32,000 bases of DNA from contig NC_014148.1 in assembly GCF_000092105.1 (NCBI RefSeq), positions 3,990,001 through 4,022,000 on the forward strand, in the 5' to 3' direction. The translations under genes were made by a program, and so were the position numbers. The notes beneath the pieces were generated by a model, which made no database searches, was not told where the DNA came from, and saw only the letters and a list, made by a program, of their open reading frames with translations. The DNA is from Planctopirus limnophila DSM 3776 (GTDB taxonomy: Bacteria > Planctomycetota > Planctomycetia > Planctomycetales > Planctomycetaceae). Shown piece after piece: positions 3,001 through 28,053 of the stretch (its first letter is position 1; the number at the start of each line of letters is the position of its first letter).

Positions 3001-3564
3001 GTTGGCCACCAACGGCAGATTCGCACAGTATCCGAGTCGCTTTTGTACCTGACGCACACAGGCCGTGTGAATGTGTTCGTTGTCCCTGGCAAATCCACCG
3101 ATATCGAACACCACGGCGAACGGTTCGGCGATCAGTTGCCGCAGCTTCTTCCAGGCGTCGCGAAACTCCTGTGCTCGATCAGACAGGTCACGCGCCAGTA
3201 GCGCTTCGGCCAGCGACTGGCCATTGGGCAGTTCAAGCCCATCCAGCGACAGCCCCAGCAGTTTGGCAAAACTGGATTTACCAGAGCCATAGAATCCGGA
3301 GATCCATGCTGCAGGCAGCGAGGGGCCGCCATTCTTTTCCATCTCGCGGGAAATGGCGTTCAGCAGCCTGACGTATTGCTCGTGAATTCCATCAGGCACT
3401 CGTTTGAAGTTGGGATGATCTTTGTTCCAACCACCAGTGATAATGTACTCCGAGACTTCGTCCTGAACCTTTCCAGGACTCTGCTCGTGAAAATACACCA
3501 CCGGAGGAATGTCGCGAGTGACATCCTGGCGAAACAAGTGTCTGATTAAAGCGGGACTGCTCAT
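1..3564 (-). CDS. brxC: BREX ATPase BrxC/PglY (P-loop); the 3' end runs off the window, 1188 codons visible
   Basis: Absent from the ORF track because no stop codon is reached. ATG at 3564 (+ strand 'cat' 3562-3564) opens a minus-strand frame phased on nt 1. I spot-checked nt 1-360 and 3230-3564 and found no stops. My translation: MSSPALIRHLFRQDVTRDIPPVVYFHEQSPGKVQDEVSEYIITGGW...AAWISGFYGSGKSSFAKLLGLSLDG. Walker A (GFYGSGKS) is at nt 3274-3297. It follows brxA and brxB in the canonical order. The + strand ORFs 376..1641 and 1894..3201 are its antisense shadows. Confidence 0.85.
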   Translation of the reverse strand, partial: MSSPALIRHLFRQDVTRDIPPVVYFHEQSPGKVQDEVSEYIITGGWNKDHPNFKRVPDGIHEQYVRLLNAISREMEKNGGPSLPAAWISGFYGSGKSSFAKLLGLSLDGLELPNGQSLAEALLARDLSDRAQEFRDAWKKLRQLIAEPFAVVFDIGGFARDNEHIHTACVRQVQKRLGYCANLPLVANFELRLEKAGEWTRFLEVSDQIGHPWEQEKDQPFADEVFSEILHHFDKDRYTNPMSWIDSRAGTTVTDSPTEAVCAISDMMRLRKPDGTLFIVVDEVSQYVLSHEQRVDKLRAFASELGSQLKGKVWLLALGQQKIDEDAGDAFLVWAKDRFPQQLRVHLAATNIRDVVHRRLLQKTEAGAKDLRKRFEKHRPDLKLFAFGCEDVSADEFVEVYPLLPGQIDLLLQITSAMRIRSARAQGDDQAIRGLLQLLGELFRDQNLADLPVGNLITLDTIYEIQKTALDSDTQASMARILNETANRAPMLQRVAKAVALLELIQDTRPTDAKLVAQCLYDRMDRGNQVNEVTEALEELRRDNLLAFSEKLGYRIQSTAGEEWEREKREIRASREVISEIIRDALQMVMEKPEKPAFKKRPFPWAALFSDGKGMDDDKLVRAKDEAVVCVDFRFAQPDERSESVWIERSNEVNLHDRLIWVCGDTNDLTDRARALARARGMAKRYAPRRDSLSEQRKLLLQQEEVKSETLESDIQDIVESAWLAGTIYFRGKTYKPDDFGSKFAGALLKVAERVMPILYKEFDPITLQPSELDQLLIQELSGPSTRFLKDELGILELDAGKYVPTCSGLIPTRIRELIESEDGATGAHLLSKFAGPPYAYQAEVIKACVIGLLRGSKIKIEDGEGNEITAVRDAGVRDVFEKPTAFRKAQFIPVGDDDIGVRARARICKFFDEQLGTPLDREDNAIADAVEKKFHPLASDLRDVLVRFDRVPGNRETPTELTRLNSALEQCLSKIRNTKETLKRVKKHLDDLVDGVKLLKRFGAELTEDSLRLLRDAHNVATNQAAQLRELGTLTGPAQECAERIAEQLASSRPWVDALAIQPDLDVVCQAYREERTRLLEWQEQQAEQARARIRMRDGYSTLPSEKGHNVLRPINNSCSDTTAAAIAPALRDLKDPFTVRLQAAEEQANRLLDEYLSGGSKPMIVPVDLSLHNREIKSEADVDALV

Positions 3565-3581
3565 GGACGGCCCATCTGCTG

Positions 3582-4217
3582 TTAGTAAATCCGTGGTCTG
3601 TAGTCGCTGTCTGGGTCAACAACTCCCATGAAAGAGAGTCCTTTTTCTCCACGCCGTTCTCCGGGGTATAGCAAAACGACAGGGACGTTCCGTGTTCTGC
3701 CATCCAGATGGCGCAGTAGGGCTGATGATCGAAAGAACGGATACAGTGCGCCGGCCCGACCAACGATGGCGACCGTTCGATCAATGGTCTCTGCGTTCTG
3801 ATCGGCATAATCACAAATGATTCGACTGCAGTCGGCTGCGATGCCTTCCGGCCCCTCTATCAGCGGGGCAAGCCGTGTCTGAAGGTCCTGGATGCCACGC
3901 TCGATCGATTTTTGGGAAGTTCGTTTTTCGCGTTCGACTAACCGTTGAATGAAATCCTCACCCTGCGACCGAACGCGATCCAGGAGGAGCTTCTGCAGAT
4001 TGATCGTCAGCACCATCCAACCTTCGGATACGAGTTCGGTGTTGAGCCGGCGAACTTCACGCCGAAGACGGAATTCGTCTTTGGGATCGTATTGAACAAT
4101 CGCGAATCGATAGTTCCGCATCGTGCTGATGCGGGGGCCATCTTCCTGGATGAGGTCCGACCGCAGCGCATGAATCGCTTCCTGAAGCGGAGTTTGAGAG
4201 AAAAGATCGGCTGTCAT
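3582..4217 (-). CDS. brxB: BREX protein BrxB (DUF1788)
   Basis: 211-aa ORF. It carries RNYRFAIVQYDPKDEFRLRRE and a C-terminal VPVVLLYPGERRGEKGLSFMG...DYRPRIY, which fit my memory of the DUF1788 pattern. Its ATG overlaps the brxA stop (ATGA at 4214-4217). A 17-nt gap separates it from brxC. Confidence 0.85.
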   Translation of the reverse strand: MTADLFSQTPLQEAIHALRSDLIQEDGPRISTMRNYRFAIVQYDPKDEFRLRREVRRLNTELVSEGWMVLTINLQKLLLDRVRSQGEDFIQRLVEREKRTSQKSIERGIQDLQTRLAPLIEGPEGIAADCSRIICDYADQNAETIDRTVAIVGRAGALYPFFRSSALLRHLDGRTRNVPVVLLYPGERRGEKGLSFMGVVDPDSDYRPRIY

Positions 4218-4996
4218 GCTGTCTCCCGCAGTTGAGATTCCCCATGGAGGATCCTCGCCTCAGCCCACTCCGCGAGATCCTTGTATCGCCATGAGAACTC
4301 AAAGAGTTCTCCCTGTCTTCGGAGAGGGCAGTCGGGGAACGTTCTCGATCGTCGCTCAAGTTCCGGACCGGTCACGCCAACCGAAGCCAGATACGGGTTG
4401 TCAATCAGCGTGCCTTGAAACTGAATTTCACGCAGCAGATACAAAATGTAGCTTAGTGCTTCGTCGGTCACTCGCGGCGCCTGCCATTCACGTGGATCTC
4501 GGGTTCCCTTCAGGATGCCAGCTTCGCCTGCCGAAAAGAGCAGTTTTCTCGCAAACTGTATCCGTGTGGCGGTAGTCCAGCGCTGGGGAGCGGAATGATC
4601 GATCCAGCGAACAACAACATCTCTGGTCATTTCGGTTCGCCCGGCAGAATAGCGATCGACTAGGAAGCCGCCGGTGAATTCGCGGTAGAGCCGATCAGCC
4701 AACTGCAGGTGCCAATGACAGATCAAGCGGCGAGTGCTTGAGTCCATTGTCCCCCATCGATGCAGGATCGACATGGCAGGCGGGAACTGGTCAAATCGAT
4801 GTCGGAAATCATTGATAAGCCGAGTGACACGTGGCAAACTCCTCGCCCCAAACCAGTACTCTTTAAATGCGATTTGGGTGATAGTGTCATCGGCGGCTTC
4901 GGCAACACGATGCCAGTAAGCGCGACAATGCTCAACCTCAAGCGAGCACTTGAGGAGTCGCGTGTGAAATGCCGTGGTCTCCGAAGGCCGAGGCAT
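4214..4996 (-). CDS. brxA: BREX protein BrxA (DUF1819)
   Basis: The track ORF starts at TTG 4999. The next codon is ATG (4994-4996), which I prefer as the start. The N-terminus (TAFHTRLLKCSLEVEHCRAYW) resembles the DUF1819 'Y.a.l.kg.l..e' opening. The gene sits directly upstream of brxB. Confidence 0.75.
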   Translation of the reverse strand: MPRPSETTAFHTRLLKCSLEVEHCRAYWHRVAEAADDTITQIAFKEYWFGARSLPRVTRLINDFRHRFDQFPPAMSILHRWGTMDSSTRRLICHWHLQLADRLYREFTGGFLVDRYSAGRTEMTRDVVVRWIDHSAPQRWTTATRIQFARKLLFSAGEAGILKGTRDPREWQAPRVTDEALSYILYLLREIQFQGTLIDNPYLASVGVTGPELERRSRTFPDCPLRRQGELFEFSWRYKDLAEWAEARILHGESQLRETA

Positions 4997-5634
4997 CAAC
5001 TCGACCTCCGATAGTGTGGCAATGGATAGGAATCCGACAGCGGGTTGAATGCGGAAATCAAGTTGGAAACCGTCAGTTCAAGCGAATCCGGCTGTTTCCC
5101 TTTCAAACGGCGGCCCGCCGGAACATTCGTGAATTCAGCAGGATGGTGTCCTTCAAGCCACTCCACAAATTGCTCTGGATTCCAACTTTCGGAAACGATT
5201 TCCTTCAATCCAGGGAGAGCGATCGTCGGAGTGACCTGACGGCGTTTGAGGTCGGCAAGTCGATCATCGACACGCTCATCTACATCAAATCCCAAATAAA
5301 AAAGTGAGATAATTTCTTCGGCGTCGTGAGCGTGCCCACGCAGATCGGCGTCTCTCCTCCGTGCTGCTTCGCGCACACTTTGAAAGATGGCCCACTCCCA
5401 AGTATGTGGTAGCAAGCGACGAAAAAGATCTTCCCCACCAAACTCACTCTGGAGGTCAGTACGCCACCAGTCAAGCCGGGATTCTTCCCCGCCTTCTCCT
5501 GCCCAAGCGATGGCGAACTGGGCAGTGAGCAAATAGTCGAGAACGGACAACGGAATCTGTGTCCGAGCTGATGTGTCAATCGTGGCGGCTCCTTTGCCTG
5601 AGTCCTGTTCATAAACGGTTCGGAGATTTCTCAA
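4996..5634 (-). CDS. Uncharacterised protein coupled to brxA; candidate BrxE-like accessory gene (call based on position)
   Basis: 212-codon ORF. Its TGA stop (4996-4998) shares one nt with the brxA ATG. The only in-frame start at the 5' end is TTG (5634). I recognise no domain. A gene in this position is described for BREX type 6 (brxE). Confidence 0.45.
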   Translation of the reverse strand: MRNLRTVYEQDSGKGAATIDTSARTQIPLSVLDYLLTAQFAIAWAGEGGEESRLDWWRTDLQSEFGGEDLFRRLLPHTWEWAIFQSVREAARRRDADLRGHAHDAEEIISLFYLGFDVDERVDDRLADLKRRQVTPTIALPGLKEIVSESWNPEQFVEWLEGHHPAEFTNVPAGRRLKGKQPDSLELTVSNLISAFNPLSDSYPLPHYRRSS

Positions 5635-5732
5635 TCGACCACTCGGTCAACTCAAGCAACGCTTCCAAATCGTTTCCCGTGTAGAGACGATAATTGTTCA
5701 TTGAGTGGCGATACAAGCGACCATGATGAATT

Positions 5733-6341
5733 TCAAACAATGACGGGTTGTGGTTGCCAGGGTTTCCGGTCGCGGAGGATGGCATTGAGGGTGGTGATCA
5801 GCTTGTGCATGCAGGCCACCAGGGCCACTTTGAAGGCCTTCCCCGCGTTTCTTAATTTCTGGTAATAGCCGCGAATCACGGCGTTATGCCGGGTGGCGGC
5901 CAATGTGGCCATGTACAGAGCTGTGCGGACATTTTTTCGTCCGCCACGGATCATCCGCTGGCCACGACATTCACCACTGTCGCAGTTCATGGGAGCCACT
6001 TCCACAAGAGCTGCGATTTCTTCCCGCGAGCACTCGCCCAGTTCCGGTCAATCAAGCACCAGAACGCGGGCTGTCTGCGGGCCAATCCCGGGAACACTTT
6101 TGAGCAGCTCGACTTTTTCCTGTCAGGCAGGAGTCTGTCGAATCTGCGTGTCAATCTCATAATGGAGTTGCTGGAGACGGCTGCACCTGGTTGTTGAAAC
6201 CAAAGGTACTCTGTATGTCGACGAACTCCGCGATAAAGAGGGAGCCAAAATCGATTGCGGCAAAGCCCATTTCGAGGCGATCGCAGTGGAATCAAACCCG
6301 GCGAAGTTCATGCAGGCGAAGACAGTCGGTGATCTGTTCAA
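5733..6341 (-). pseudogene. IS110-family transposase relic (C-terminal Transposase_20/HhH part, N-terminal catalytic domain missing or degraded)
   Basis: My reading of a single minus-strand frame: ...RLQQLHYEIDTQIRQTPA*QEKVELLKSVPGIGPQTARVLVLD*PELGECSREEIAALVEVAPMNCDSGECRGQRMIRGGRKNVRTALYMATLAATRHNAVIRGYYQKLRNAGKAFKVALVACMHKLITTLNAILRDRKPW. There are two in-frame TGA stops (+ strand 'tca' at 6123-6125 and 6048-6050). They fall where W and L are expected. Confidence 0.8.
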
Positions 6342-6711
6342 TTGATTGTCCAGATGCCAGGCGAAGTCGTCAGTTGCTGTTGTTACGCTTGTTTCAGTGT
6401 TTCAGAAAGAGGTATGTACTGGCTCTTGGAGGCTCATCCATCAGACAGCGACTAACAATTCTATTTTCCTGATATAGTGTTTAATTATGTGTAACAACCG
6501 TAACAAGCATCTCCAAAGAAGTTCTAAGCAGTGCAATAGACAGCACTTACAGTGTTACCTGTGTTCTGCCCCACATTGGTAACTGATTGTCAACGGTTGC
6601 AACAAACGATCGTTAAAAACCAGATTTTGTGCTCGTATCCCTCGATTTGATGACCTGTCAGTGCTCAAGCTGTTCATCAGCTTCCGTAACCCTGTTCACA
6701 ACATTCGAGAT

Positions 6712-6755
6712 ACAGCCGTCGTTATCGAATGCAACAGCCGTCGTTATCGAATGCA
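6712..6755. repeat. Perfect 22-bp tandem duplication (acagccgtcgttatcgaatgca x2)
   Basis: Read directly: unit 1 is 6712-6733 and unit 2 is 6734-6755, identical at 22/22. The unit length is not a multiple of 3. Confidence 0.95.
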
Positions 6756-7104
6756 GAGGAGACGGGCTAATCAGCTCGTAAATGATCCGGGCCTGTCTAC
6801 GCTCCATGATCAATGCGATGGACAGCTCTCTCCACGCTCGTTCTTGAACGACTGTGCAACGGTTGTTTCCATCGGGTGAGCACCTGACAGCAGTTCAAGA
6901 GCAGGCTCGATTTCGTTCTCACTTGATCGACGATTTCGATTTTTCCGAAATCAGAGCCCTGCGAAAAACTCAACGGCCATACTTCCCTCAACCTCAAAAC
7001 CACCTTCGACTCTTCGAGCGGGAATGGGTCTCTGGCGAAAGCACTCCGGCGTCTCATTGAGAGACACCGGAGCATAACGCCAACAACCTTTGCTCCCTGG
7101 CTGA

Positions 7105-9282
7105 CTATTGGGAAGGTGTTTCAATCCACTGCTGCAAAGCCCCCCAGTTCTGTCCGGTTTCAATCACCACTTGAAGCGGAACGGGCATAGGATTTGAGAA
7201 TCCGGTCATGGCGGCTCTTATGCCGCGGGCGACCGCGTCCAATTGGTGCGTCAGACAGTCTACCAGCACGCCGTCGTGCATCGGCAGTAGGATGCGGGCA
7301 CCGGGAGGAAGCCTCTGATCCATCGCAATCAGCGCTTGCTTGAAGAGTTCAGCAGCGTGGGCCTGAATGAGGTTGTTCACTGCTTGGCGTTGGCGATTCA
7401 AGTCGTCCTGGCCTTCCGTGAGGTCTATGACTCGCCCCAACGGAGTCGTGACAAACCCGCTACTGAGAGCCTCCGCTGCCACGGATTGTCGCCAGGTCAT
7501 CAGCCGGGGGAACAGCCGCTGGATGGCTTCCGCGACAGAGGTCTTGCCGTCAGATGCTGTGCCATCATCAATGAAATCGTAGAGTGCTTGGATCGAGTCC
7601 CCTTTAATTATAGGCCGAGCGGAACTGACATCATGCTTCAAGTCATCGAATTGGCTGACAAGGAATGCATAGAGATCAAAATCAGGACTTCCAAAATCAG
7701 TGAGCAACTGCGAATCCTGGCTCAGCGCTGCTGCCACACGCCATTCGAACGCCCGGTAATCTGCGGAGATAAGAGTCCGGCCTTCGCCTACAACGACGGC
7801 TGGACGTAGACGTAGGGGAATCGACTGGCACGAATACTGTGAAGCCGTAATTCGACCTGTCCGGGATCTGTTTTGCGAAAGGCGCGTACGGAGGCGTCCT
7901 CCAGTCGGGGCGGCGCTAAGCCGCATTCTCTTCAGTTCAGGCAAATCATTGGTAGATGAAGGATTCCACCTTTCATCGAGCAGCAGTCCATGCTGCTCAA
8001 TCTTTCGAAGGATCGGGTTCATCGCTGCATCGAGTCGTGCGGACGCCGTAAGCTCTCGTCCCGTATGCTGGATGACCTGGAGGGGGTTCATGCCCGGGGG
8101 ACGCGAAATCGCACTGGCGATCGGAAGACGTGATACGTCCCTCGCGGGGGGGATGATGATCGTCCCAGCAGACTGTGAAAGAAGCCCGGCATCCGCTCTC
8201 GCCTGCCTCAAGGCGTGTTCAACTTCCTCAGGTCGGCATTCCCCGAAATCTTTACGGCCATCTGGTGGCAGGCAGCGCAAGACCCGTTTCGAAACTGCTC
8301 GTAAGCTGAGTTGTCTCTGCAATCGCCCAATCAATTCCATGGCGTCGGTTTCAGCATCTCTATCCAACGCCACCAGGACGGCGGACGCTTTTGAGGCCAG
8401 ATCCACCAGGAGGTCGAGCTGGGTCTGGCTGGCCGACTTTCCCAGAAGGGCAACTGCATTCCGACCAATCCGCCAGGCATCGGTCACACCCTCCACGACA
8501 ACGATCTCCGAGCGATCAGTAACTCCCGGCATGCCATACAAGTGTAACGACTTCCGGAATCCCGTCGCCGTGAGATACTTCGGCTGATCACTCTGCTCAA
8601 TTGCGCGCGCCTGCCACCCGACAAGATTTAAGGTTTCGATCTGGTAGAAGGGAATAATCAGCCGACGGACAATTCTGGGCTGTGAGGAATCGGACTCATC
8701 TACGTACCCCACATTCCAGTCGCGTGCGAGCTGTTCGGGGTCGAAGTTTCGTGAGGTAAGATAGTTTCGCGCATCATGATTCGAGGTCGAGTCAGTCAGA
8801 GACAGGAACTCGGGCGGCAGTACTATCGGTACCACTGCGTCGCCCGGGGTTAATACCGTCGTGGTGGGCAGCCAGAGATCCCCGGCGCAAGATCGTTGAG
8901 CCTCTCGCCAAACAGAACTGATTCTCAAATTGAATCGAGTTGCGAGTACTCCATTTGTATGGCAGCTTTCGTTAAAACAGTGCCAGCGGTGGGATCTCGA
9001 CTGGTCAGTCGGGTAGTAAGTCTCCGATACACGCATGCGACTTCTTTGGTCACGACAGAACGGGCAATTCAGCACGAATTCTTCGCCAAAGCCTGTGATA
9101 ACCTCACGCCCTTGCTGCGGATCGAAACGTACAGTTCTTCTCTGACCCGGATTCGCGATGCGCATGTGCGCAGTCTGCTCGGGATAAGCTATTTGAAGAG
9201 CCCGAGCGAGACCGACGTTGCGGGGTCTGATTGAAGATGGTGGAGGAGATGGTGGTGAGACAATCGAAAGCACTGAATGCAT
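7105..9282 (-). CDS. Fusion protein: DnaG-type primase (zinc finger, RNAP core, Toprim) joined to a minimal family-A DNA polymerase palm/fingers core
   Basis: 725 aa with an ATG start. Zinc finger: C73-x2-C76...H101-C102-x4-C107-H108. DnaG-like PKYLTATGFRKSLHLYG. Toprim: VVVEGVTDAW (E264) and LDRDAETD (D307, D309). PolA motifs run in Klenow order: RTGRITASQYSCQSIP, ISADYRAFEWR (motif A), RPIIKGDSIQALY (motif B), NLIQAHAAE, LPMHDG (motif C) and VPLQVVIETGQNWG (C-terminus). Confidence 0.8.
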   Translation of the reverse strand: MHSVLSIVSPPSPPPSSIRPRNVGLARALQIAYPEQTAHMRIANPGQRRTVRFDPQQGREVITGFGEEFVLNCPFCRDQRSRMRVSETYYPTDQSRSHRWHCFNESCHTNGVLATRFNLRISSVWREAQRSCAGDLWLPTTTVLTPGDAVVPIVLPPEFLSLTDSTSNHDARNYLTSRNFDPEQLARDWNVGYVDESDSSQPRIVRRLIIPFYQIETLNLVGWQARAIEQSDQPKYLTATGFRKSLHLYGMPGVTDRSEIVVVEGVTDAWRIGRNAVALLGKSASQTQLDLLVDLASKASAVLVALDRDAETDAMELIGRLQRQLSLRAVSKRVLRCLPPDGRKDFGECRPEEVEHALRQARADAGLLSQSAGTIIIPPARDVSRLPIASAISRPPGMNPLQVIQHTGRELTASARLDAAMNPILRKIEQHGLLLDERWNPSSTNDLPELKRMRLSAAPTGGRLRTRLSQNRSRTGRITASQYSCQSIPLRLRPAVVVGEGRTLISADYRAFEWRVAAALSQDSQLLTDFGSPDFDLYAFLVSQFDDLKHDVSSARPIIKGDSIQALYDFIDDGTASDGKTSVAEAIQRLFPRLMTWRQSVAAEALSSGFVTTPLGRVIDLTEGQDDLNRQRQAVNNLIQAHAAELFKQALIAMDQRLPPGARILLPMHDGVLVDCLTHQLDAVARGIRAAMTGFSNPMPVPLQVVIETGQNWGALQQWIETPSQ

Positions 9283-9376
9283 GATGGACTTTCATTGCGA
9301 TGAATGGTGATCTGGTTTTCGGGTTGTAGCGATGCCGCCTTTTGCTGCTGTCGCGCTCTTACGTATTTTCAGACAG

Positions 9377-9404
9377 AGGGAGGAGGGCATAGTCCCTCCT
9401 CCCT
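9377..9404 (-). promoter_or_regulatory. GC-rich 11-bp perfect hairpin (AGGGAGGAGGG / CCCTCCTCCCT, 6-nt loop) in the gap between the helicase and primase-polymerase genes
   Basis: Read directly. On the minus strand the left arm resembles a Shine-Dalgarno sequence, and the loop ends in ATG (A at 9390). Confidence 0.6.
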
Positions 9405-9599
9405 AACGACCCGAACGGAAGAGCTGTCAGATGGAAACCTTGAGAGCTATCTGCAGAAAGCTAAGTCACCTCAGTAACAAACCGCATCGGAAGCTCTTAA
9501 CTCATTGACAAGCTCTTTTTTACAAGCTGTATGGCCGCTCGTCGAAAGACGTTAAGCCACCTCAACAGGTGGAATCAGCCATGATGAGACTGCCCACGA

Positions 9600-11729
9600 T
9601 CACTCCGGTACTTCCTCCGTGCCTGCGGCTCGCTCTTCCAACAGAGGCGCCAGAATGCTGCCTTTCAGGCAGACCATTCGTACTGTAGGGCCATTTCTCG
9701 ACAATCGCACCATTTGAAGGTTCCCACGACCCCCGCTGACATGAAGCCAGCCAAGATTTCTCCATGCTGCGATTGTCTCCTGGAAATTGAAGCCTCTTAA
9801 CTGAAGAATTCTTTCCAGTTCGGTGAGAGTAAGGGCCAGAGATGGACGTCGATTAGCGTCGTCACGCGTTACGATCCAACGTCCAACAATGTCTCCCTGA
9901 CCTTCGGATGATCGGAACAGACCCTCCTGCAGTGAAGCCATATTGTTAACTGGAAAGAACCACCGTCGGCCAACCTCATCAAGGACGTGATGCAGTGCCT
10001 CAAGGGGGCGATCTGTTTCGATCAATTCACCAGCCAGCAGGGCCATAAGATCCCGGCCCGGATGCCGGAGTCTCTCTGGAAGATCGAAGAGTTCTCCTGC
10101 CAGCTCGGCGGCGAGTTCGACGACCGCGAGATGGCCCGCCATTCGTCCCGCAACCGGATTGTTCTGGACGGAATGTGCCAGCGTCTCGTGAATCTCACGA
10201 TAGCGTTCCCGCCACTGTTCCCAACTCGCTTGCTGCTGAAGAACCTGTCGCACAAACCGTGGTCCCAGATGGCCGAAATGGCGATTAGCCCGTGATCTAT
10301 AGCCATCGACCGTTTCTCGAGCATTGCTGATCAGATTGGCGAAGGGCGGACGGTTGAGTGGAACGACTCGTGCCCAGGTCCCCCCCTGCTCTTCAAAGCT
10401 GGTGAGCGCTTGCTCGCCCGTTGAAAGAGCAATCAGTCTCCATCTCGCTGTCTGCTGGACTCCGGCAACAGTTCCTCTTCCGCGAGCGATTCCATTCGCC
10501 AGGTCAAAAACGATTTGGCTGATCTGGTCATTTCTGGCCTGTCGGGTGTCATCCAGGAATAACGGCAAATGGTTATGGAAAGCGGCCCTGCGCTCTACGA
10601 AGACACGTGTCTGGTTCCAGGAATGGATCAGGGCTGCACCAGTCGCCTGGGCATCAGGCCGCCCCCAAACACTTGCCGAGACTTCAAGTGTCGTGGTTTT
10701 GCCTAGGCTCGTGGTTCCTGATAAATCGACCACAAATCCGGGGCGCTGGAGTATTGGGAGCAGGACGCTTGCCAGCGACGAGTAGAGCATGAAACGAGCG
10801 ATCGGAGACTCAGCTACCTCACGGAAAAGTGCGAGGCTCTCTTCAAAACTTCCTCCAGCCACAAAGGCATCGAGAGCGCTGTCGAAACCGTCATCGGGCA
10901 TGACGACGTCAATACCGTCTGGTTCCTCAGGTGTGGCCGCGATAAGAGTTCGTCCCCACGCAAACTGATTGAGATCTCTTTCCCACCCCAGCTGTCTCAG
11001 TACCTGACGATGAGGAAGGACCATGCTGTTGTCACCAAGGAAATCACCAAAGTACCCGACCCATCGACGAGCATTCAAAGAGTTCACGTTCATCCCGAAA
11101 CGGGAAAGTTCCAAGATTCCTCTCGAATCAGCCAGACTTCGACGAGAAATCTCACGTTGATCTAATCGACCGTCGTCTAACCACTGGACAACGACAGCCT
11201 GTTCTCTATTTATCGAATCGATGCGAATTTCGGACAGCCAAGCCAACTGTGGTAAGCTCTCAACTTCGGCGTTTCGTCTGGTCGCGGATCTCATTTCAAG
11301 AACGGGCATACTTGAATCAAAGTTGATTGACCAGTTTTGCGGAAGCTCCATATCTTCGGCAAGGGAGATGCGATTGTCGTGAATATCCAGCTGCCGCAAG
11401 ATTTCACGAATGCGTCTTGGGCCGCTTTGCTCAGGGTCAGACTCTGGGCGATTGAAACTCGAAGCGTGCTGATTGGCTTCGGAACTGGGTGGATTGGTAT
11501 CAGGCCCCGGATTCGACGGGCTCATTCCCGGCAAGAGAGTTCCCCATAATGAGGCTTCAGATTCCGGTGGAACTTGAGCAGAAAGACGGGAATCGTTGTT
11601 CGAATTTGATGCAATCATCATCGTCTTTTCTAGGCGCAATGACTTTGGAGTCGGAATAGCACCGTGGAAACATGGGAAAGTGTGGACAATCGGCGTGAGC
11701 ACACGCAGTACGAGTTGAAGAAATCTCAC
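9600..11729 (-). CDS. DUF927-type P-loop NTPase (helicase associated with phage/plasmid primases)
   Basis: VVDLSGTTSLGKTTTLEVSASVWGRPD (Walker A at nt 10695-10718) and HLPLFLDDTRQA (Walker B) match my memory of the DUF927 core. The track ORF starts at GTG 11729. ATG codons at 11621 and 11618 are alternative starts. The first ~100 aa are rich in P, S and N and of low complexity. Confidence 0.75.
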   Translation of the reverse strand: MRFLQLVLRVLTPIVHTFPCFHGAIPTPKSLRLEKTMMIASNSNNDSRLSAQVPPESEASLWGTLLPGMSPSNPGPDTNPPSSEANQHASSFNRPESDPEQSGPRRIREILRQLDIHDNRISLAEDMELPQNWSINFDSSMPVLEMRSATRRNAEVESLPQLAWLSEIRIDSINREQAVVVQWLDDGRLDQREISRRSLADSRGILELSRFGMNVNSLNARRWVGYFGDFLGDNSMVLPHRQVLRQLGWERDLNQFAWGRTLIAATPEEPDGIDVVMPDDGFDSALDAFVAGGSFEESLALFREVAESPIARFMLYSSLASVLLPILQRPGFVVDLSGTTSLGKTTTLEVSASVWGRPDAQATGAALIHSWNQTRVFVERRAAFHNHLPLFLDDTRQARNDQISQIVFDLANGIARGRGTVAGVQQTARWRLIALSTGEQALTSFEEQGGTWARVVPLNRPPFANLISNARETVDGYRSRANRHFGHLGPRFVRQVLQQQASWEQWRERYREIHETLAHSVQNNPVAGRMAGHLAVVELAAELAGELFDLPERLRHPGRDLMALLAGELIETDRPLEALHHVLDEVGRRWFFPVNNMASLQEGLFRSSEGQGDIVGRWIVTRDDANRRPSLALTLTELERILQLRGFNFQETIAAWRNLGWLHVSGGRGNLQMVRLSRNGPTVRMVCLKGSILAPLLEERAAGTEEVPE

Positions 11730-12375
11730 GGGGGTCCCAGTAAGGGCGCAATGATAGTTGCGCAGCTACCGGTCATATCAAGCGGCCAAGGATCACAAGT
11801 ACTGGTATCAATTAACTTTAGAACAGCAGACACGGGCCGCTGTTGTAAGCAGAGATACAATGTGCAGTAGTTAGGAAAGGCTCTCAACACGATAAGATGG
11901 TTGAATGGCCTCTACTAAAATTCCTATACCCAGGTGAGTTAAAACTCGCTTAGTCTTACCGACAGAGTTCGGCAAGCAGAATTCGCCACTTTCGGCGAGC
12001 GGCAACGCATTCTCCAATAAGTTTCAATTGGTCGAATCGGCCACTAGAGTCGGATTGCATGTAAAATCAAAAGTCGATATGAGCTCCTTTTTCTGTCATG
12101 GATAATTCTTCGGTCTGCTGCATTGGGATACCGCATTCCAATGCTCGGGAGGGAGAGATGCGAGTCGCTGTCTTCAATTACAAATGATCTGAAGAGCATT
12201 TTGCTAACGCCAGAACCCTGACAATAAAGATTGTCGATGTCTTGCATTCCGTCAACTCACGCAACCCATGAAAATCAACGAGAATCAAAAATTTGCGCGC
12301 TTTCAAGACACTCCGTCTTGAACTATAGGTCGCGTGTGTAGTGTGGATCCTGTTTCGAACTTGCAGGTCGTAGTG

Positions 12376-13383
12376 TTAACTGGCCTTTGTCAGGTGGAGA
12401 AATGGTGGCAGCTGGTTGATCAAGCCGTCGACATCAATGCGGGGAATACGGAGTATCGACAGTTTCTCTGAGAGAGGGTCGATAGCCGCTGTGTCCTCCA
12501 GAACCTGGCCATTGTCAACAGCCTGCGGAACTACCGACTCCTCGACGTTAACCTCTGTGGGAGATGACGTTGGGGACGATACTAAGGCAGTTTCTGACAG
12601 TCGACGTGCATGTTCATGTTGATACAGAGGCCAGTACAGATTCTCTGTCTCGATCTCTTTTTCGGGAAAATTGAGTTTGATCTGGATTTTCAGATCGAGC
12701 GAATATGTTTCTGGCGGAGACACATGACTCACGGGAAATTTTCGGACAGCCATCGCGACACGGTCGATGGCTGCCCGCGCCTTATAGGATCGAGAATAGA
12801 GTCCCGGATATTCATAGTGATAGCGAGCCGTCTGACGTGCCCGGTGCCCTGATTTTTTCAGCGTCCTGGAGGCATCTTTGAGATTCATCAATACCAGCTG
12901 CTCGTAATACAACTCCAGGATGGGATGAGCATGCATCCCCTCGGGAAGCGCGACTTTGCTTTCCACCAGTTGCTTCATTTGATCCAGTTGCGTTGAAGAA
13001 TGCCCGGACATCGTGACGAGCTGCAGATACAAGGCGGTTTTGCCCCACTGTTTCAGCTCCCGTGCCTTCGCCTTTCCTATCAGTCGCTTCTGGCGATCCG
13101 TGAGTTCTGGCAGCTTATAGTCTGTTGGTGCTAACAACCCGGCCAGCACAGGGAGTGGAAACTCCAGCAGCTGCTGAAGCTTTCTGGCGCTGATTTTGGC
13201 CTGATTCCGCACCTGATTTTCAAAACACGTCAGCTTCCGCCGAGCCTGGTTGATGGCTGCGAACATCTGCGCTGCTGCGATCCCATCATAACCACTGCCG
13301 TAATACTCTTTCTCAATACGTCCGTAGCGACGAACTGAGCGGTAATAGTAACTGTTTCCGTTTCGACGCCTTTCCCATGCCAT
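12376..13383 (-). CDS. Hypothetical protein (335 aa)
   Basis: ATG start at 13383. The composition looks protein-like. The N-terminus (MAWERRRNGNSYYYRSVRRYGRIEKEYYGSG) resembles openings I associate with hypothetical proteins of mobile elements. No domain recognised. Confidence 0.6.
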   Translation of the reverse strand: MAWERRRNGNSYYYRSVRRYGRIEKEYYGSGYDGIAAAQMFAAINQARRKLTCFENQVRNQAKISARKLQQLLEFPLPVLAGLLAPTDYKLPELTDRQKRLIGKAKARELKQWGKTALYLQLVTMSGHSSTQLDQMKQLVESKVALPEGMHAHPILELYYEQLVLMNLKDASRTLKKSGHRARQTARYHYEYPGLYSRSYKARAAIDRVAMAVRKFPVSHVSPPETYSLDLKIQIKLNFPEKEIETENLYWPLYQHEHARRLSETALVSSPTSSPTEVNVEESVVPQAVDNGQVLEDTAAIDPLSEKLSILRIPRIDVDGLINQLPPFLHLTKAS

Positions 13384-13499
13384 GTGATCACTTGCTCTCC
13401 AAGTTTTTGTTTGAGGAGTTGTGCTAAAACGATGATCTGGGGGGAGATGCCCCCCCCAGCCAAGTCCTGCGCAGGAGTCATCAGACCCTTACCGAACCC

Positions 13500-14249
13500 T
13501 TAGGGCTGGGAATTACAGACGGTTTGAAGCCACTGACACTGAGCTCTCAATTCCCGCAGTTTTTCAGCGGCATAAACCAGTTTGCATGTTTGTGGCCGGG
13601 GATGCCGGGGCGTATCGCGGGGAGACAGGATCCGTAGAACTCTCAGCTTCTCTTCCCGTGTCAGCTGGCTCTCTTCTCGCAGATATCCCAACAGCCCATA
13701 CCTTCGCACCAGTGTGCGCAACTCAGGAGTCAGATATCGCTCCAGTTCTGTGAGACCCGATTGATAGGCCACAAGCTTCCAGAAATAGCTGTATTCATGG
13801 CTTTTTGTGATTTCCACAGGCCGAAATTTGACAGCGTTATGCTGAATCCAGGAGATCGATGTCTTCAAAAGAGGCAACACCTCAAAGAACAGGGCTTCAT
13901 AAGCCACAATGGCATTTTCTGGCCATTGCACCACAGAAGCCACCTCACTCACTGTCTGATGAGCCAGCAGACGCGCCTCGATTTCAGCCGATACGAACGG
14001 ATCCGTTTCTCGTAAGGAAACGGCCATCAGCACGGCTTCATCGATGTGATCGTTCACTGTTGGCGCGCGCTCCCGCACCTCCCAGCACTTCAGGAGACTG
14101 AGACACCAGGGGTCTTTAAGGCGTTTCTCAGGGTGCTTCCTGGCCAGAAGGCACCACAATTCCCGCCAATTTGGCTCCCGAATTGGGGAAGTGGGACCCG
14201 GAATCTGTTTTTCGAAGAAGAAATAGTCGCCAAATGGAGAGCGCGGCAT
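13500..14249 (-). CDS. Hypothetical protein (249 aa from the ATG)
   Basis: The track ORF starts at GTG 14306. The first ATG is at 14249 (MPRSPFGDYFFFEK...). No domain recognised. Same orientation as the replication genes. Confidence 0.55.
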   Translation of the reverse strand: MPRSPFGDYFFFEKQIPGPTSPIREPNWRELWCLLARKHPEKRLKDPWCLSLLKCWEVRERAPTVNDHIDEAVLMAVSLRETDPFVSAEIEARLLAHQTVSEVASVVQWPENAIVAYEALFFEVLPLLKTSISWIQHNAVKFRPVEITKSHEYSYFWKLVAYQSGLTELERYLTPELRTLVRRYGLLGYLREESQLTREEKLRVLRILSPRDTPRHPRPQTCKLVYAAEKLRELRAQCQWLQTVCNSQP

Positions 14250-14688
14250 CACTTTTTCGCTCAAAAATGAGGGTCTGGAACAGCGCGATGTACTACATCT
14301 GCACACAGCGAGCTTTCGCTATTCCCGCATATCTCGGGCGTGAGCGCAAGAGGAAAAGATTCCGCCCGGGCGAAGAGCTGTCGCGTCCCGTTCGAGAAAT
14401 GAATGGCCGGATTGCCTTCCACAGCCGCCGTGAAAGTCATGCCGGGAATTCTCACGACACATCAAAAACCTCACTAGCGCGGATCAACCTTCTGCGCTAC
14501 GATGAGTCTTGAAGCTTTGTGCCATATCACGCCATGCCGAGAGGAGGTTCGATTGAGACAGCCATTCCCGACTTCTGTGCTCGTTCCCTGATGAACAGCC
14601 AGGAATGTCCCTTCTAAACAGGGAGTGAATGCCAGCTTGTGCAGCAGCATTCTCGGAATGGATTCAGCCCATATGGAGAAATATCACC

Positions 14689-14901
14689 ATGTATGACATT
14701 TTTCATGAACACAAGCCAGGCTTTGAATCTGTCGCTGTGGATCGCCAGACCGCAGCAAAAATCCTGGGAATTTCACTCGCCACACTCGACCGCCATGTAC
14801 GGTCTGGAAAAATTCCCTCCTGGAAGCTGGGGCGACGTGTCATATTCGATCAGGCAACACTCCTTGAATTGTTGCGTTCCGCGGGTCAGTCCACGAGGTG
14901 A
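14689..14901 (+). CDS. Helix-turn-helix DNA-binding protein, excisionase/AlpA/MerR-like
   Basis: DRQTAAKILGISLATLDRHVRSGKIPSWKLGRRVIFDQATLLELL is a typical Xis-type HTH. ATG 14689 is preceded by GGAGAA 8 nt upstream. The track start at ATG 14629 would add 20 aa. Confidence 0.65.
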   Translation: MYDIFHEHKPGFESVAVDRQTAAKILGISLATLDRHVRSGKIPSWKLGRRVIFDQATLLELLRSAGQSTR

Positions 14902-15376
14902 TTGAAGTTGTCCGGATCTCCCACAGAAGACAGCTGATCTGTTTTGAGTCTTACAGAGAGGTTCGAGTCGACCTCGCAGGATACTCAACAGCTCAGCTGT
15001 ATTCTGGTGGGGAGCCAGAATACGTCTTGAAGGGTTTATCGAGCCGAGAAGTCCCGGCATCCACGTTCTAAACACGGCCCTGTCGATCAGGAACTGATGG
15101 TTGGCAGTGGGAAGAAGTGAATTTGCCAGCTCACAAAACAAGCAGGGCCATCTTCCTGGAAGATGTCTTTCGCTATGAGATTCCAGACTTCTCGACAGGG
15201 GCGTATGGCGTCGAACCGTTTACGTGATGGAGGAATCGCTGAGAATTCAGGAACGTAAACTGGCCGCCGCGGCTGACTCGTAAAGCATTCAATCGACTGA
15301 CGAACTTTTCTCACTGTCTGTGATTCGTAATGTCGTTTGATTCATCAAGCTCACTCGAAGTTTAGGGGTTCATTCA

Positions 15377-16696
15377 ATGGCATCTCTCGAAACGGATAAG
15401 TCTGGCAATAAAACAATTCGGGTTCTCTGTGCCGATGGCAAGCGAAGACGGATCCCGCTTGGCAGGGTTGCACTCAAGTTTGCTCGAACCATCCGAACTC
15501 ATATCAACGAACTTGAAAGCCATCGGGCGGGGGCTGTGGCTTTACCGGTTGAATTGGCTCGATGGACGGCTGAAATCAGCGACGATCTCCACGCTCAGAT
15601 CGTGGAAACAGGATTACTCCAGCCACGGGCGAAAACGGCCACGGTCCATCTGGGGGCGGCCTGCGATGCCTTCCTGGCCAAGCGAGGAGACATCAAGGGC
15701 GGGTCGCGGCAGCAGATCGAATACGCGCTGAAGGACCTACGGACGTACTTCGGCGATGACCGGAGTTTCGATTCGATTACCCCTGGCTGTGCGGATGATT
15801 TCGCTCGCTACTTGAAGTCCAAAGAGCAACTCGCCACGGCCACAATTTCCCGGCGGCTGGTGACGTGCCGGAGTCTTTTTGCCGATGCGGTCAAGCGGAA
15901 GTGCATCTCAGAGAATCCGTTCGCGGACATCAAGGGTGGTTCACAAGCCAATTCATCCCGCCAGCGGTTCATCGACCGACAGACAATCGGACGGATCATG
16001 GAAGCCTGCCCGGATGCCGAATGGCGACTGCTGGTCGCACTGGCGCGATTCGGTGGTGTTCGTGTCCCGTCTGAAGCCGTCGACATGCGATGGAGCGATA
16101 TCGACTGGGCTAGAAACCGGGTCCGAATCGCTTCGCCGAAAACAGAACACCATGTCGGCCACGAGTCCCGAGAGATTCCTTTGTTCCCTGAATTGCTGAC
16201 GCCCTTGATGGAGCGGCAGGAACTGGCGGAAGATGGGAGTGAATTCATATTCGACCGGTTGCGGCGAGATGCGGCCAAATCAGACACTGGCTGGAAGGCG
16301 GTGAACCTGCGGACGCAATTCACTCGCATCATCAAACGGGCTGGGTTGACACCGTGGCCACGGCTCTGGGTGAATCTTCGATCATCGTGTTCGACAGAAC
16401 TTGCCGAACGATTCCCCGGCCATGTGGTCTCCCGATGGTTAGGGCATTCAAACGAAGTTGCGGTGGAACATTATCGGCAGGTGACGGAGGAGCATTTTCG
16501 CTTGGCGGCGGAGACGACCTCAAAAGCGATGGAAAACATCCGGGCACAATCCGGGCAATCACTGGCCATCATAGGCAATCTGGGGTCCTCGACAGCTTGG
16601 ACCAGAAACGAAGAAACCCCTGAAAAACAGGGGTTTTGCGGACTAGTGACAGTTGGTGAAGAGTCAAATGATTACCCCGCCAGGATTCGAACCTGA
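15377..16696 (+). CDS. int: Tyrosine recombinase / phage-type integrase
   Basis: 439 aa. Catalytic signature: FGGVRVPSE (Arg I), VNLRSSCSTEL (the HxxR box, with N in place of the first H) and WLGHSNEVAVEHY (His and the Tyr nucleophile). AGGGG lies 8 nt upstream of the ATG. The last 25 nt overlap the tRNA-Gln 3' half. Confidence 0.9.
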   Translation: MASLETDKSGNKTIRVLCADGKRRRIPLGRVALKFARTIRTHINELESHRAGAVALPVELARWTAEISDDLHAQIVETGLLQPRAKTATVHLGAACDAFLAKRGDIKGGSRQQIEYALKDLRTYFGDDRSFDSITPGCADDFARYLKSKEQLATATISRRLVTCRSLFADAVKRKCISENPFADIKGGSQANSSRQRFIDRQTIGRIMEACPDAEWRLLVALARFGGVRVPSEAVDMRWSDIDWARNRVRIASPKTEHHVGHESREIPLFPELLTPLMERQELAEDGSEFIFDRLRRDAAKSDTGWKAVNLRTQFTRIIKRAGLTPWPRLWVNLRSSCSTELAERFPGHVVSRWLGHSNEVAVEHYRQVTEEHFRLAAETTSKAMENIRAQSGQSLAIIGNLGSSTAWTRNEETPEKQGFCGLVTVGEESNDYPARIRT

Positions 16697-16742
16697 ACGT
16701 GCAGGACCAAAACCTGCTGTGCTACCGTTACACTACGGGGTA
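16672..16742 (-). tRNA. tRNA-Gln (anticodon UUG), 71 nt, CCA not encoded
   Basis: Hand-folded from the reverse complement: TACCCCG TA GTGT AACGGTA GCAC A GCAGG TTTTGGT CCTGC ACGT TCAGG TTCGAAT CCTGG CGGGGTA A. It has the U1:A72 pair known from E. coli tRNA-Gln. Confidence 0.9.
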
Positions 16743-16974: not shown

Positions 16975-17634
16975 TTATGGTGTCTTGGGAATCTGATTCA
17001 GCTGATTCAGAATCTGGTTGTTCTGGTTCTTGATATCGTCATTCTGGCTGACGGCCACAGCTCCCAGCACCACACCGGCAATCACACCCGAGGTGAGCAG
17101 TACCATGCCGGGAGTGACGCCACCAAACTGTCCACGCACTGCTGGCGACTGGGCCACCATGGTGAAGCCGGTTTTCGCTGCGGGGGGTGCCGTTCGCTCA
17201 GTCCAGGCACGCACGGTCCGAGTTTCATTCCCGGCAGCAATCCGGTAAGTACCACCTTTCAACCCTTTGACGGCAAACTGTCCCTGGGCATCAGTGTTGG
17301 TCTGAGCAATCGAATTGTTTCCAGCCTGAATATCCACGACGGCCCCAGCAAGAGGTTGTCCCTGGGTATCCACCAGACGACCTTGGAGTTCACTGCCGAC
17401 GAGCGTTACATCCACAACGGGAGCAACTTCCTTGGCAGGAGCCTGAATAGCACGAGCCTGAGCAGCAGGTGCAGGTGCCGCTGCGGGGAGGGAATTTTCC
17501 AGAGCCGGTGCTGCGGGTGCTGAGAAACCTGCACTGGGTGCCTGATTGCCAGCCAGTGCCAGGCTGTGTGGGCAGAGAATTCCGCCAGCAACCAATGCCA
17601 CCAGAGCAGCTCGGTAAAATTTCGTGGTTCGCAT
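16975..17634 (-). CDS. Secreted, membrane-anchored protein with a carboxypeptidase-regulatory-like (CarboxypepD_reg) domain
   Basis: Signal peptide: MRTTKFYRAALVALVAGGILCPHSLALAG. Beta-sandwich motif: GRLVDTQGQPLAGAVVDIQAGNNSIAQTNTDAQGQFAVKGLKGGTYRI. C-terminal hydrophobic helix: VLLTSGVIAGVVLGAVAV. Confidence 0.7.
   Translation of the reverse strand: MRTTKFYRAALVALVAGGILCPHSLALAGNQAPSAGFSAPAAPALENSLPAAAPAPAAQARAIQAPAKEVAPVVDVTLVGSELQGRLVDTQGQPLAGAVVDIQAGNNSIAQTNTDAQGQFAVKGLKGGTYRIAAGNETRTVRAWTERTAPPAAKTGFTMVAQSPAVRGQFGGVTPGMVLLTSGVIAGVVLGAVAVSQNDDIKNQNNQILNQLNQIPKTP

Positions 17635-27980: not shown

Positions 27981-28053
<73 letters not shown>

Follow-up and report, generated by a model that had tools for sequence, protein, structure and literature searches.

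A genomic island at tRNA-Gln of Planctopirus limnophila encodes a DUF927 helicase and a primase–polymerase fusion

Introduction

Do the genes beside a tRNA-Gln gene of the freshwater bacterium Planctopirus limnophila DSM 3776 form an integrated element with replication genes of its own? The stretch of DNA analysed, hereafter the window, is 32 kb long and positions are window coordinates unless another sequence is named. Leftwards from the tRNA, the window encodes a tyrosine integrase, an excisionase-type helix-turn-helix (HTH) protein, two orphan proteins, a DUF927 helicase, and a DnaG-type primase fused to a DNA polymerase of family A (PolA). A relic of an IS110-family insertion sequence (IS) and part of a BREX operon follow. 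An earlier sequence-only reading listed these features, all of which are present at the coordinates collected in Table 1. It proposed a pipolin-like element that replicates itself with PolA, and our results support that interpretation in part.

We conclude that the locus is probably a genomic island at the 3' end of tRNA-Gln, with a tyrosine integrase, an excisionase, and a replication module of the type found in Staphylococcus aureus pathogenicity islands (SaPIs) and in staphylococcal cassette chromosome (SCC) elements, here including the DnaG::PolA fusion. The island core occupies about 6.3–16.7 kb of the window and consists of the integration module and the replication module. Specific domain matches, and conserved catalytic residues, argue that these genes are not chance open reading frames (ORFs).

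Close relatives lack the genes next to tRNA-Gln

Related loci were fetched using FliF, which is encoded 1.5 kb to the right of tRNA-Gln. Two of these loci, from P. hydrillae JC280 (L007) and the metagenome-assembled genome (MAG) D1 (L008), are 93.5–96% identical to the window rightwards from the tRNA through the flagellar operon. The third, from MAG DS3 (L009; DS3.3.33), is more distant and is 74–83% identical to the window right of the tRNA. The tRNA-Gln gene is 100% identical in all three, none has an integrase at this site, and housekeeping genes are found instead. Hence, in agreement with the sequence-only reading, the island genes are not conserved chromosomal core. In P. hydrillae, a gene for a dipeptidyl peptidase IV (DPP-IV)-type peptidase ends ~225 nt from tRNA-Gln. 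This peptidase is also encoded in MAG D1, where it is separated from the tRNA by 7.2 kb of unrelated genes with metabolic and regulatory functions. The island DNA, at least 28.7 kb in length, has no match to any of the three loci. We conclude from this comparison that the content of the window is an insertion relative to the closest relatives, and that the site downstream of tRNA-Gln is a hotspot for differing insertions.

Note that the block in MAG Planctomyces sp. D1 (L008 1034–8281) encodes an amidohydrolase, a DAO oxidoreductase, a DUF1559 protein and a XylR/AraC regulator, and no integrase. It sits where P. hydrillae has only ~90 nt.

The island encodes an initiator-type helicase and a DnaG::PolA fusion

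The DUF927 protein has a Walker A motif (GTTSLGKT) at residue 338 and a Walker B motif (LFLDD) at residue 390. It matches the primase/helicase family phrog_8841 at 2e-86. Comparison with solved structures identified a SaPI protein (PDB 8TCH; 3e-31) and the Cch protein of SCCmec (PDB 5DGK; 5e-11). Thus, as in SaPIs and other phage-inducible chromosomal islands (PICIs), a Rep-type initiator helicase is accompanied by a primase domain in the adjacent gene. A further match, to NCBIfam NF047345 (SCCmet_Cch1; 1.4e-14), is below the equivalog cut-off. Judged by its sequence, the protein is related to Cch by homology, and we do not claim orthology. It is predicted to belong to the family of self-loading initiator helicases that contains SaPI Rep and SCCmec Cch.

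The product of the adjacent gene comprises a primase domain (residues ~60–367), a linker (368–411) and a polymerase domain (412–725). In the AlphaFold model, which has a mean predicted local distance difference test score of 74, there are two folded halves and the linker is disordered. The primase half matches phrog_47, named 'DNA primase', over residues 66–368 (5.5e-44), TIGR01391 dnaG (2.4e-11), and the primases of PDB entries 2AU3 and 8GAO. It has a zinc finger (CPFC…HRWHCFNESC), with the pattern C73-x2-C76 … H99/C102 … C107, and the TOPRIM residues EGVTD and DRD (E264-G-x2-D268 and D307-x-D309). These features identify a putative DnaG-type primase with a CHC2-like zinc finger and a TOPRIM domain. 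The C-terminal domain with which DnaG binds the DnaB helicase is absent from the fusion; the linker and PolA domain are in its place.

The sequence-only reading had made its case depend on the PolA assignment, and this holds, as do the other domain assignments. The C-terminal half of the fusion matches PF00476 (5e-35) and, over residues 397–715, Taq Pol I (3e-23). Foldseek aligned it to Bst Pol I (PDB 2HHW) with a root mean square deviation of 3.3 Å over 299 columns. Polymerase motif A is DYRAFEWR (D508-Y-R-A-F-E513), motif B contains R556, K560 and Y568, and motif C contains H669-D670. Hence, this half is the palm and fingers of a family-A DNA polymerase. It is the sole polymerase domain; no family-B (primer-independent) polymerase was found, and no 3'-5' exonuclease domain was detected in the fusion. 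We compared the fusion with eight homologues, which are 32–41% identical apart from one 82% copy. Invariant positions include C73/C76/C102/C107, E264-G265-D268, D307, D508, R556, K560 and H669-D670, among others.

Two observations concern the gene model. The NCBI protein begins at Met40 and has 686 residues, so omitting the N-terminal stretch encoded at 9166–9282. Since homologues align from residue ~19–22 (consensus LNPxLxxAL..AFP), the 725-aa ORF from 9282 is the better model. Separately, on one Logan contig of the same strain (L004 5054–7113; SRR017854), the fusion is split into ORFs of 358 and 328 aa, and two other runs have the intact 725-aa ORF. The split is most likely a sequencing or assembly frameshift, not biology.

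An integrase gene adjoins the tRNA and is followed by an excisionase-type gene

The site-specific recombinase gene adjoins the 3' end of tRNA-Gln and overlaps it by 25 nt, with the TGA stop (16694–16696) inside the 3' half of the tRNA. The catalytic domain of the integrase ends near residue 385 (…LGHSNEVAVEHYRQV) and the last ~55 residues are a tail running into the tRNA. The HTH gene matches HTH_17 (1.4e-10), TIGR01764 'excise' (4.5e-8), and the excisionase families phrog_66 and phrog_1840. Small ORFs inside the 475-bp gap between the two genes have no family match.

The arm next to the tRNA (16529–16671) is only 64% identical to L007 and 57% identical to L008, despite core flanks there of 93.5–96% identity. 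The simplest reading is that the arm is element-borne, which fits integration at the tRNA 3' end, and by this comparison it probably arrived with the element. In distant MAG L009, which has no integrase nearby, a 143-nt stretch beside tRNA-Gln (L009 8327–8466) is 82% identical to the arm. This stretch may be a remnant, or scar, of a related element.

Neither orphan gene (13500–14306 and 12376–13383) has a trusted match in Pfam, PHROGs, NCBIfam or PADLOC. The 335-aa product has only a sub-threshold match to CCDC85, and the 268-aa product has a weak relative in element L003 (29% identity over 98 aa; 1e-11). The AT-richer gap at 11730–12375 is likely a promoter region and possibly a candidate origin.

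The same gene set recurs beside other tRNA genes

An exhaustive HMMER search with the fusion returned 12,651 relatives at E ≤ 0.001, most matching one domain only. Among the best 150, most are stand-alone primases of ~360 aa, and ~30 are 650–970 aa long and match both halves. These ~30 fusion clusters, counted among the best 150 representatives, are in metagenomes. PF00476 was present in five of five long relatives checked. The longer proteins (850–966 aa) have a full polymerase domain and still no recognisable exonuclease domain. A scan of a genome-contig collection with fusion peptides found nothing, a weak negative since P. limnophila itself seems to be unreadable there and just one of six search peptides survives in an 82%-identical relative.

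In all nine independent loci with enough sequence, a helicase gene is directly upstream of the fusion gene. The helicase is of the DUF927 type in L003, L016, L019, L021, L024, L120, L121 and the P0015 contig, and of the D5_N/DUF5906 type in L122. A further locus, L015, shows collinearity with the window; on this sequence comparison it probably represents the same island. It is 92% identical over the whole 4.7-kb collinear block and 96% identical within the non-coding stretch at 6346–7104.

The sequence-only reading had proposed that homologues be inspected for the same neighbourhood. We found the set of integrase, HTH protein, helicase and primase–PolA beside tRNA-Arg in L121 and tRNA-Ala in L122, both unrelated Planctomycetota-like contigs. 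In L121 the order is tRNA-Arg, integrase, four genes, HTH_17, DUF927 and fusion. In L122, a 1.46-Mb contig, it is tRNA-Ala, integrase, two genes, DUF1580, D5_N helicase, fusion, small genes and then a chromosomal FGE-sulfatase (sulfatase-maturase) gene. The layout beside two other tRNAs indicates a real family of integrative elements. The window integrase has no detectable similarity to those of the related loci, and so the family has diverse integrases. Chromosomal genes (dinB and a sulfatase gene) start within ~1 kb of the end of the fusion gene in L019, and the fusion gene is therefore the distal gene of a compact core. We conclude that this is a small family of tRNA-integrating elements, found so far in Planctomycetota-like genomes and in metagenomes.

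Two side observations were made at the tRNA-Ala element. First, contig L123 (13.6 kb, from another sample) is 100% identical to L122 3818–17443. One end of the contig falls within the T-arm of the tRNA and the other lies 8 nt short of the chromosomal FGE-sulfatase gene, and assembly may have broken at the element boundaries. We rejected the idea that L123 is a circle formed by excision, since its termini do not overlap; near both ends, TCCGCT is the sole shared core. Second, a CRISPR array with ~31 copies of a 36-nt repeat (GTGTCAGTCGATCACTTGGCCGGCGAATTAGCCGGC) occupies L122 20072–22300, ~2.6 kb past position 17443, the putative right-hand boundary of the element.

Could the locus instead be what remains of a prophage, an integrated plasmid, or an integrative conjugative or mobilizable element, with structural or transfer genes outside the region examined? 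The left boundary of the island was not located, a fragment of a DUF5131 (phage Gp37/Gp68-like) gene lies upstream of the helicase gene in L019, and PHROG primase and polymerase families match. Against this, the 28.7 kb left of the tRNA contains no capsid, portal, terminase, tail, relaxase or type IV secretion genes; similarly, the sequence-only reading had seen no capsid, terminase, relaxase or conjugation genes, and we found none. Such genes are also missing from the ~13.6-kb interval between the tRNA-Ala end and the chromosomal FGE-sulfatase gene of L122. Finally, searches of 50,697 phage genomes, 72,556 plasmids and IMG/VR gave no full-length relative of the fusion. We therefore regard a remnant of this kind as so improbable that it deserves little weight.

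Defence genes flank the replication module

In two independent elements, defence genes are cargo beside the module. These encode type III Res and BREX-6 in the window, and an AbiJ-domain protein and the Hachiman helicase HamB, which follow the fusion gene, in L120. Hence, we considered whether the helicase and primase–PolA are themselves an anti-phage system acting by nucleic-acid synthesis, so that they would be cargo, like BREX, and no replicon. The pair does lie within a defence-rich region. Furthermore, the PADLOC models for PolA and DnaG-like proteins associated with reverse transcriptases (RTs) match the two halves of the fusion (6.4e-29 and 6e-13, respectively). UG9 reverse transcriptases work with PolA, and UG29, UG6 and UG24 with DnaG-type primases (PMC9226505). 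[quoted passage not shown] However, no reverse transcriptase or effector gene is nearby. The generic matches to Pfam and Taq score at least as well as those to PADLOC, which thus reflect shared domains. PADLOC has no match for the helicase or for the orphan genes, and the helicase homologues of known structure are SaPI Rep (8TCH) and SCCmec Cch (5DGK). The pair also holds a fixed place beside the integrase and excisionase genes at three different tRNAs, as a core module would. A defence role for the pair is, in our view, very unlikely.

Logan contigs from P. limnophila runs, reached via PglZ, lengthen the view by 12 kb to the left of the window. The BREX system is of type 6. Briefly, BrxE matches NF033448 BREX_6_BrxE (5e-73), BrxA and BrxB have Pfam matches, and Pfam families on contigs L004, L017 and L018 cover the full set brxE-brxA-brxB-brxC-pglX-pglZ-brxD-brxHI. 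Relatives of PglZ carry the NCBI name BREX-6. To the left of brxHI is a frameshifted IS5/IS427-like transposase relic (L017 16350–17659; window about -10700 to -12006). The left 12 kb has no similarity to the flanks in L007, L008 or L009, and the variable region left of tRNA-Gln is at least 28.7 kb. BREX thus lies in the same variable region as the island core, bearing out a suggestion of the sequence-only reading. The Res remnant is the last ~50 codons of its gene; the longer copy in L015 matches PADLOC REase_III (2.5e-31). Collinearity with L015 stops at 6178, inside the IS110 relic. The type III restriction-modification remnant and BREX-6, with IS relics among them, are defence cargo that either belongs to the island or was accreted onto it. 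As a side observation, the start of a gene without a family match lies beyond the IS5-like relic, and the 106-kb Logan contig then ends. A repeated IS on the far side of BREX is suggested.

Is the island still mobile?

Several results weigh against an active, self-replicating island. No repeat of the tRNA-Gln 3' end, as expected for an attachment (att) site, was found above chance in the window or the 12 kb to its left (L017). The query was the tRNA with 270 nt around it, and short-word BLAST and repeat finding were used. The direct repeat that the sequence-only reading had proposed to look for is therefore lacking there, and its statement that the window has no second copy agrees with our repeat searches. 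A 9-nt match (ACCTCAAAA) between positions 16517 and 6991 does not exceed chance (E=17), and we disregarded it. In the window locus, the repeat could be farther off, extremely short, or lost by deletion. No long tRNA-derived att repeat was present in L121 or L122 either, so the att core of the family could be a short one. For the DPP-IV flank gene, the protein collection contains no close orthologue from P. limnophila. This, together with the IS110 and IS5-like relics, suggests that the left junction is deleted and that the island may be fixed.

Other points concern the replication genes. The match to the PolA domain starts at position 100 of 381, so the first ~100 Pfam positions, which are most of the thumb, are missing. 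Motif C is HDG, not HDE. Together with the missing exonuclease, these properties suggest an enzyme that is presumably of low processivity and non-proofreading, as we take it from what is generally known of Pol I. Compared with the 92%-identical L015 copy, the ratio of non-synonymous to synonymous substitution rates (dN/dS) is 0.69 for the fusion (0.76 in the primase half and 0.66 in the PolA half) and 0.41 for the C-terminal part of the helicase. On these ratios, the two genes appear to be under weak or relaxed constraint, though both ORFs are open in both strains. The pattern fits a fast-evolving gene of a mobile element, or early decay. A motif cluster 3' of the fusion gene, described below as part of a candidate origin, is absent from this position in distant family members.

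Might the locus, then, be a fixed relic? That is, a once-mobile island that no longer has its distal att site or its left junction, is slowly decaying, and has replication genes that are idle as far as mobility is concerned. The absence of an att repeat in at least 28.7 kb, the two IS relics, the truncated Res gene, the missing DPP-IV orthologue and the dN/dS of the fusion would all follow. In addition, the arrangement, including Res, is kept in L015, which fits vertical inheritance. Conversely, the integrase, excisionase, helicase and fusion ORFs are intact, their catalytic residues are conserved, and the tRNA-proximal arm is whole. At ~10% divergence, neutral decay should, we reason, have put stops in 2.2 kb. 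Such a history is possible, but we are inclined to doubt it, and continue to favour an island whose integration and replication modules are those of a mobile element.

The best candidates for an origin are predicted at 6346–7104, 9283–9599 and 11730–12375. Within the first of these, 3' of the fusion gene, a segment of 305 nt (6382–6690) has 6 of the 21 GT(A/T)AC (GTWAC) motifs in the 32-kb window, and the cluster is kept in L015. One possibility is an array of protein-binding sites that serves an origin, an att arm or a regulator. As noted above, we rejected it as a conserved origin. Some of the motifs sit within an imperfect 17-nt inverted repeat (6380–6396 / 6490–6506). Also in this region is a perfect 22-nt tandem duplication (ACAGCCGTCGTTATCGAATGCA, two copies; 6712–6755). 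It was rejected as an iteron because L015 has one copy; hence, the duplication in the window is recent and is not an iteron array. Likewise, ORF 6797–7075 was rejected as a gene, its frame being broken in L015.

Comparison with known systems

Judged by homology, the closest systems are the primase–Rep module of SaPIs and PICIs and the replication operon of SCC elements. In SCCmec, the exonuclease-less PolA protein CcPol and the small OB-fold protein MP act together as a primase, beside the D5-type helicase Cch2, and other SCC types carry the DUF927 helicase Cch (PMC7581432, PMC10061031). Operons for PolA and SSB, with recombinases, are widespread in Bacillota (PMC7581432, PMC10061031). Furthermore, these two papers cite a 2008 proposal by Iyer, Abhiman and Aravind that TV-Pols are primases of mobile elements. 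Since CcPol, PolA-SSB elements and TV-Pol are known, a family-A polymerase on an integrative island is not new. The sequence-only reading, which took a PolA-bearing integrative element for an unusual class, overstated the case in this respect (PMC7581432, PMC10061031).

The SCC and PolA-SSB elements resemble the present island in being integrative islands with cargo, and in having a conserved operon with a self-loading helicase (CcPol-MP with Cch2, or LP1413 with Cch). The polymerase of CcPol-type operons is, similarly, a family-A domain without exonuclease. In both groups, helicases of DUF927 and D5 type are interchangeable at one position (L122 compared with the other loci; SCC patterns 1 and 2). 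However, SCC elements use large serine recombinases at rlmH, whereas the window has a tyrosine integrase (PF00589) at a tRNA. The SCC operons also include a small OB-fold MP or SSB, whereas in the window the helicase and polymerase genes have no small gene between them. In the window, the gene order is helicase then polymerase, unlike SCC, and the polymerase shares one polypeptide with a canonical DnaG primase of zinc-finger/TOPRIM type. Because of this fusion, priming need not come from the PolA active site. Hosts differ too, being Planctomycetota for the window and Bacillota for SCC and PolA-SSB.

SaPIs and PICIs share with the island the sequence of integrase, excisionase, regulatory region, and then a module of primase and Rep helicase. 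Their core is also of ~10–15 kb and has no transfer genes of its own. Accordingly, the locus could be a phage satellite of this type, induced, replicated and packaged by a helper, with the orphan genes serving in helper sensing or capsid hijacking. The layout is SaPI-like, with a core of ~10 kb and a divergent promoter region, and the helicase is a homologue of SaPI Rep. Yet no homologue of terS, or of genes for capsid redirection or packaging interference, was detected in the window; note that the orphan genes have no PHROG or Pfam match, and that remote homologues of helper-exploitation genes are possible. No family member came up among the IMG/VR viral contigs, and no helper phage is known for Planctopirus. 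Moreover, SaPI primases are of the archaeo-eukaryotic primase (AEP) type and come without a polymerase (PMC7581432), whereas the primase of the window is DnaG-type and has one. Directly 3' of the helicase gene, where a SaPI would have its iteron origin, the gap at 9283–9599 has only short repeats (10–12 nt) and an 11-nt hairpin; the GTWAC cluster, 3' of the fusion gene, is lineage-specific. In our view a phage satellite is unlikely, and an island with a SaPI/SCC-type replication module remains our preferred reading.

Like the island, pipolins and casposons are associated with tRNAs and tyrosine recombinases, encode their own DNA polymerase, and are platforms for defence genes (PMC11551731). 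In pipolins the polymerase is family B and primer-independent, whereas that of the window is family A, primed by the fused DnaG domain and served by a dedicated helicase. The core genes are not homologous, and so the resemblance is functional only. Thus, the term 'pipolin-like', used in the sequence-only reading, holds as an analogy in tRNA site, possession of a polymerase and defence cargo, and implies no homology.

Other systems combine a DnaG-like primase, a hexameric helicase and a family-A polymerase, namely T7 gp4 with gp5 and the apicoplast protein PREX. A further case is the OS3173-type viral PolA with DUF927; in Aquificae viruses, DUF927 helicases are fused or adjacent to PolA (PMC7689252). 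The T7 primase is fused to the helicase, whereas in the window it is fused to the polymerase and the helicase is separate. PREX and OS3173 are single polyproteins with a proofreading exonuclease, unlike the exonuclease-less polymerase here. Their settings, viral for T7 and OS3173 and organellar for PREX, are different from an integrative island. TV-Pols, in turn, are minimal polymerases, family-A-like, that are found on mobile elements of bacteria, have a genetic link to helicases of the D5 family and have a proposed role in priming. The polymerase of the window scores as bona fide Pol I-type (PF00476, Taq) and stands behind a canonical primase.

A reclassification of PolA describes, in the parts covered by our term searches, AEP-PolA fusions in Planctomycetota and TOPRIM-helicase-PolA polyproteins in apicoplasts (PMC10201439). 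Those term searches of the same paper found no bacterial TOPRIM-PolA fusion. More broadly, our literature searches gave no description of a DnaG-PolA fusion, or of this element family, which is no proof of absence. Compared with known systems, the new properties are the tyrosine integrase and tRNA target, the lack of an MP-like partner, the DnaG::PolA fusion, and the host phylum.

How the island would move and replicate

By analogy with SaPI Rep and SCC Cch/Cch2, we suggest the following scheme, which goes beyond the gene identities, homologies, island status and module recurrence shown above. The integrase and excisionase would excise a circle. The helicase would then recognise an origin beside the replication genes and load itself, as do SaPI Rep and Cch/Cch2 (PMC7581432). 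On the unwound strands, the TOPRIM domain would make RNA primers, and the tethered PolA domain would extend them at once. Given that its proofreading domain is missing and its thumb is reduced, the polymerase would most likely add only short stretches of DNA, to be passed on to the host replicase in the manner of Pol alpha-primase, and not copy the whole element. Because packaging and conjugation genes are absent, transfer would need a helper phage, vesicles or transformation.

A bolder proposal, which we offer tentatively and think doubtful as it stands, is that the helicase and DnaG::PolA are a minimal self-sufficient replisome. They would be a counterpart of Pol alpha-primase that makes RNA-DNA primers, or even copies the whole circle. 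The elements would then define an unrecognised PolA-based class of self-replicating, tRNA-integrating defence carriers in Planctomycetota, parallel to the PolB-based pipolins.

If the reading is true, a covalent primase–PolA would be a third design beside pipolin PolB and SCCmec CcPol-MP, and integrative islands outside Bacillota and Proteobacteria would carry replicons too. The fusion allows a direct test of whether a tethered polymerase replaces hand-off to the host replicase. It is also a compact candidate for an enzyme that amplifies DNA without primers. Genetic tools for Planctomycetes are few, and an island with integrase, excisionase, helicase and replicase is a possible start for shuttle or integrative vectors. 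Lastly, BREX-6, type III restriction-modification, AbiJ and Hachiman beside such modules add to the evidence that replicative islands carry defence.

Coordinates and other features of the window

Features of the island and its surroundings are collected in Table 1.

Table 1. Features at the tRNA-Gln locus of P. limnophila DSM 3776, listed from the tRNA leftwards in window coordinates
Feature	Position	Strand	Basis or remark
tRNA-Gln(UUG), integration target	16672–16742	-	ARAGORN and Rfam; 3' end faces the integrase gene
tRNA-proximal arm, 143 nt	16529–16671		tRNA terminator hairpin (16612–16637) and last 48 of ~55 integrase tail codons
Tyrosine integrase ORF, 439 aa	15377–16696	+	PF00589 1.1e-16; SAM-like N-domain; phrog_1 1.5e-40
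Gap between excisionase and integrase genes, 475 bp	14902–15376		Imperfect 40-nt inverted repeat 14904–14943 / 14987–15026
Excisionase-type HTH gene, 90 aa	14629–14901	+	HTH_17, TIGR01764, phrog_66, phrog_1840
Divergent intergenic region	14307–14628		Between the excisionase-type gene and the first orphan gene
Orphan gene, 268 aa	13500–14306	-	Divergent from the excisionase-type gene
Orphan gene, 335 aa	12376–13383	-	Coiled-coil-like segment
AT-richer gap upstream of helicase gene	11730–12375		GC 0.48–0.49; no notable repeats
DUF927 helicase	9600–11729	-	PF06048 6e-33
Gap between helicase and fusion genes	9283–9599		10–12-nt repeats and 11-nt hairpin only
DnaG-type primase::exonuclease-less family-A polymerase, 725 aa	7105–9282	-	phrog_47, PF00476
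Conserved non-coding stretch 3' of fusion gene, ~760 nt	6346–7104		Candidate origin or att-arm region
Type III restriction endonuclease (Res), C-terminal remnant	6197–6345	+	Convergent with fusion gene; cut by IS110 relic
IS110-family transposase relic	5650–6196	-	Transposase_20 1e-8 in ORF 5733–6005
BREX-6 operon, proximal part	1–5634	-	brxE 4996–5634, brxA 4214–4999, brxB 3582–4217, brxC from 3564 past left window end

The Rfam scan of the window found two tRNAs and nothing else. A gene for tRNA-Val(CAC) lies at 27981–28053. Collinearity with P. hydrillae and MAG D1 ends at 27688, just past flgD and ~300 nt before this tRNA. No integrase was seen beyond that position, and genes for a Ser/Thr kinase and a CAAX protease lie farther on. 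Position 27688 may be a second variable junction at a tRNA.

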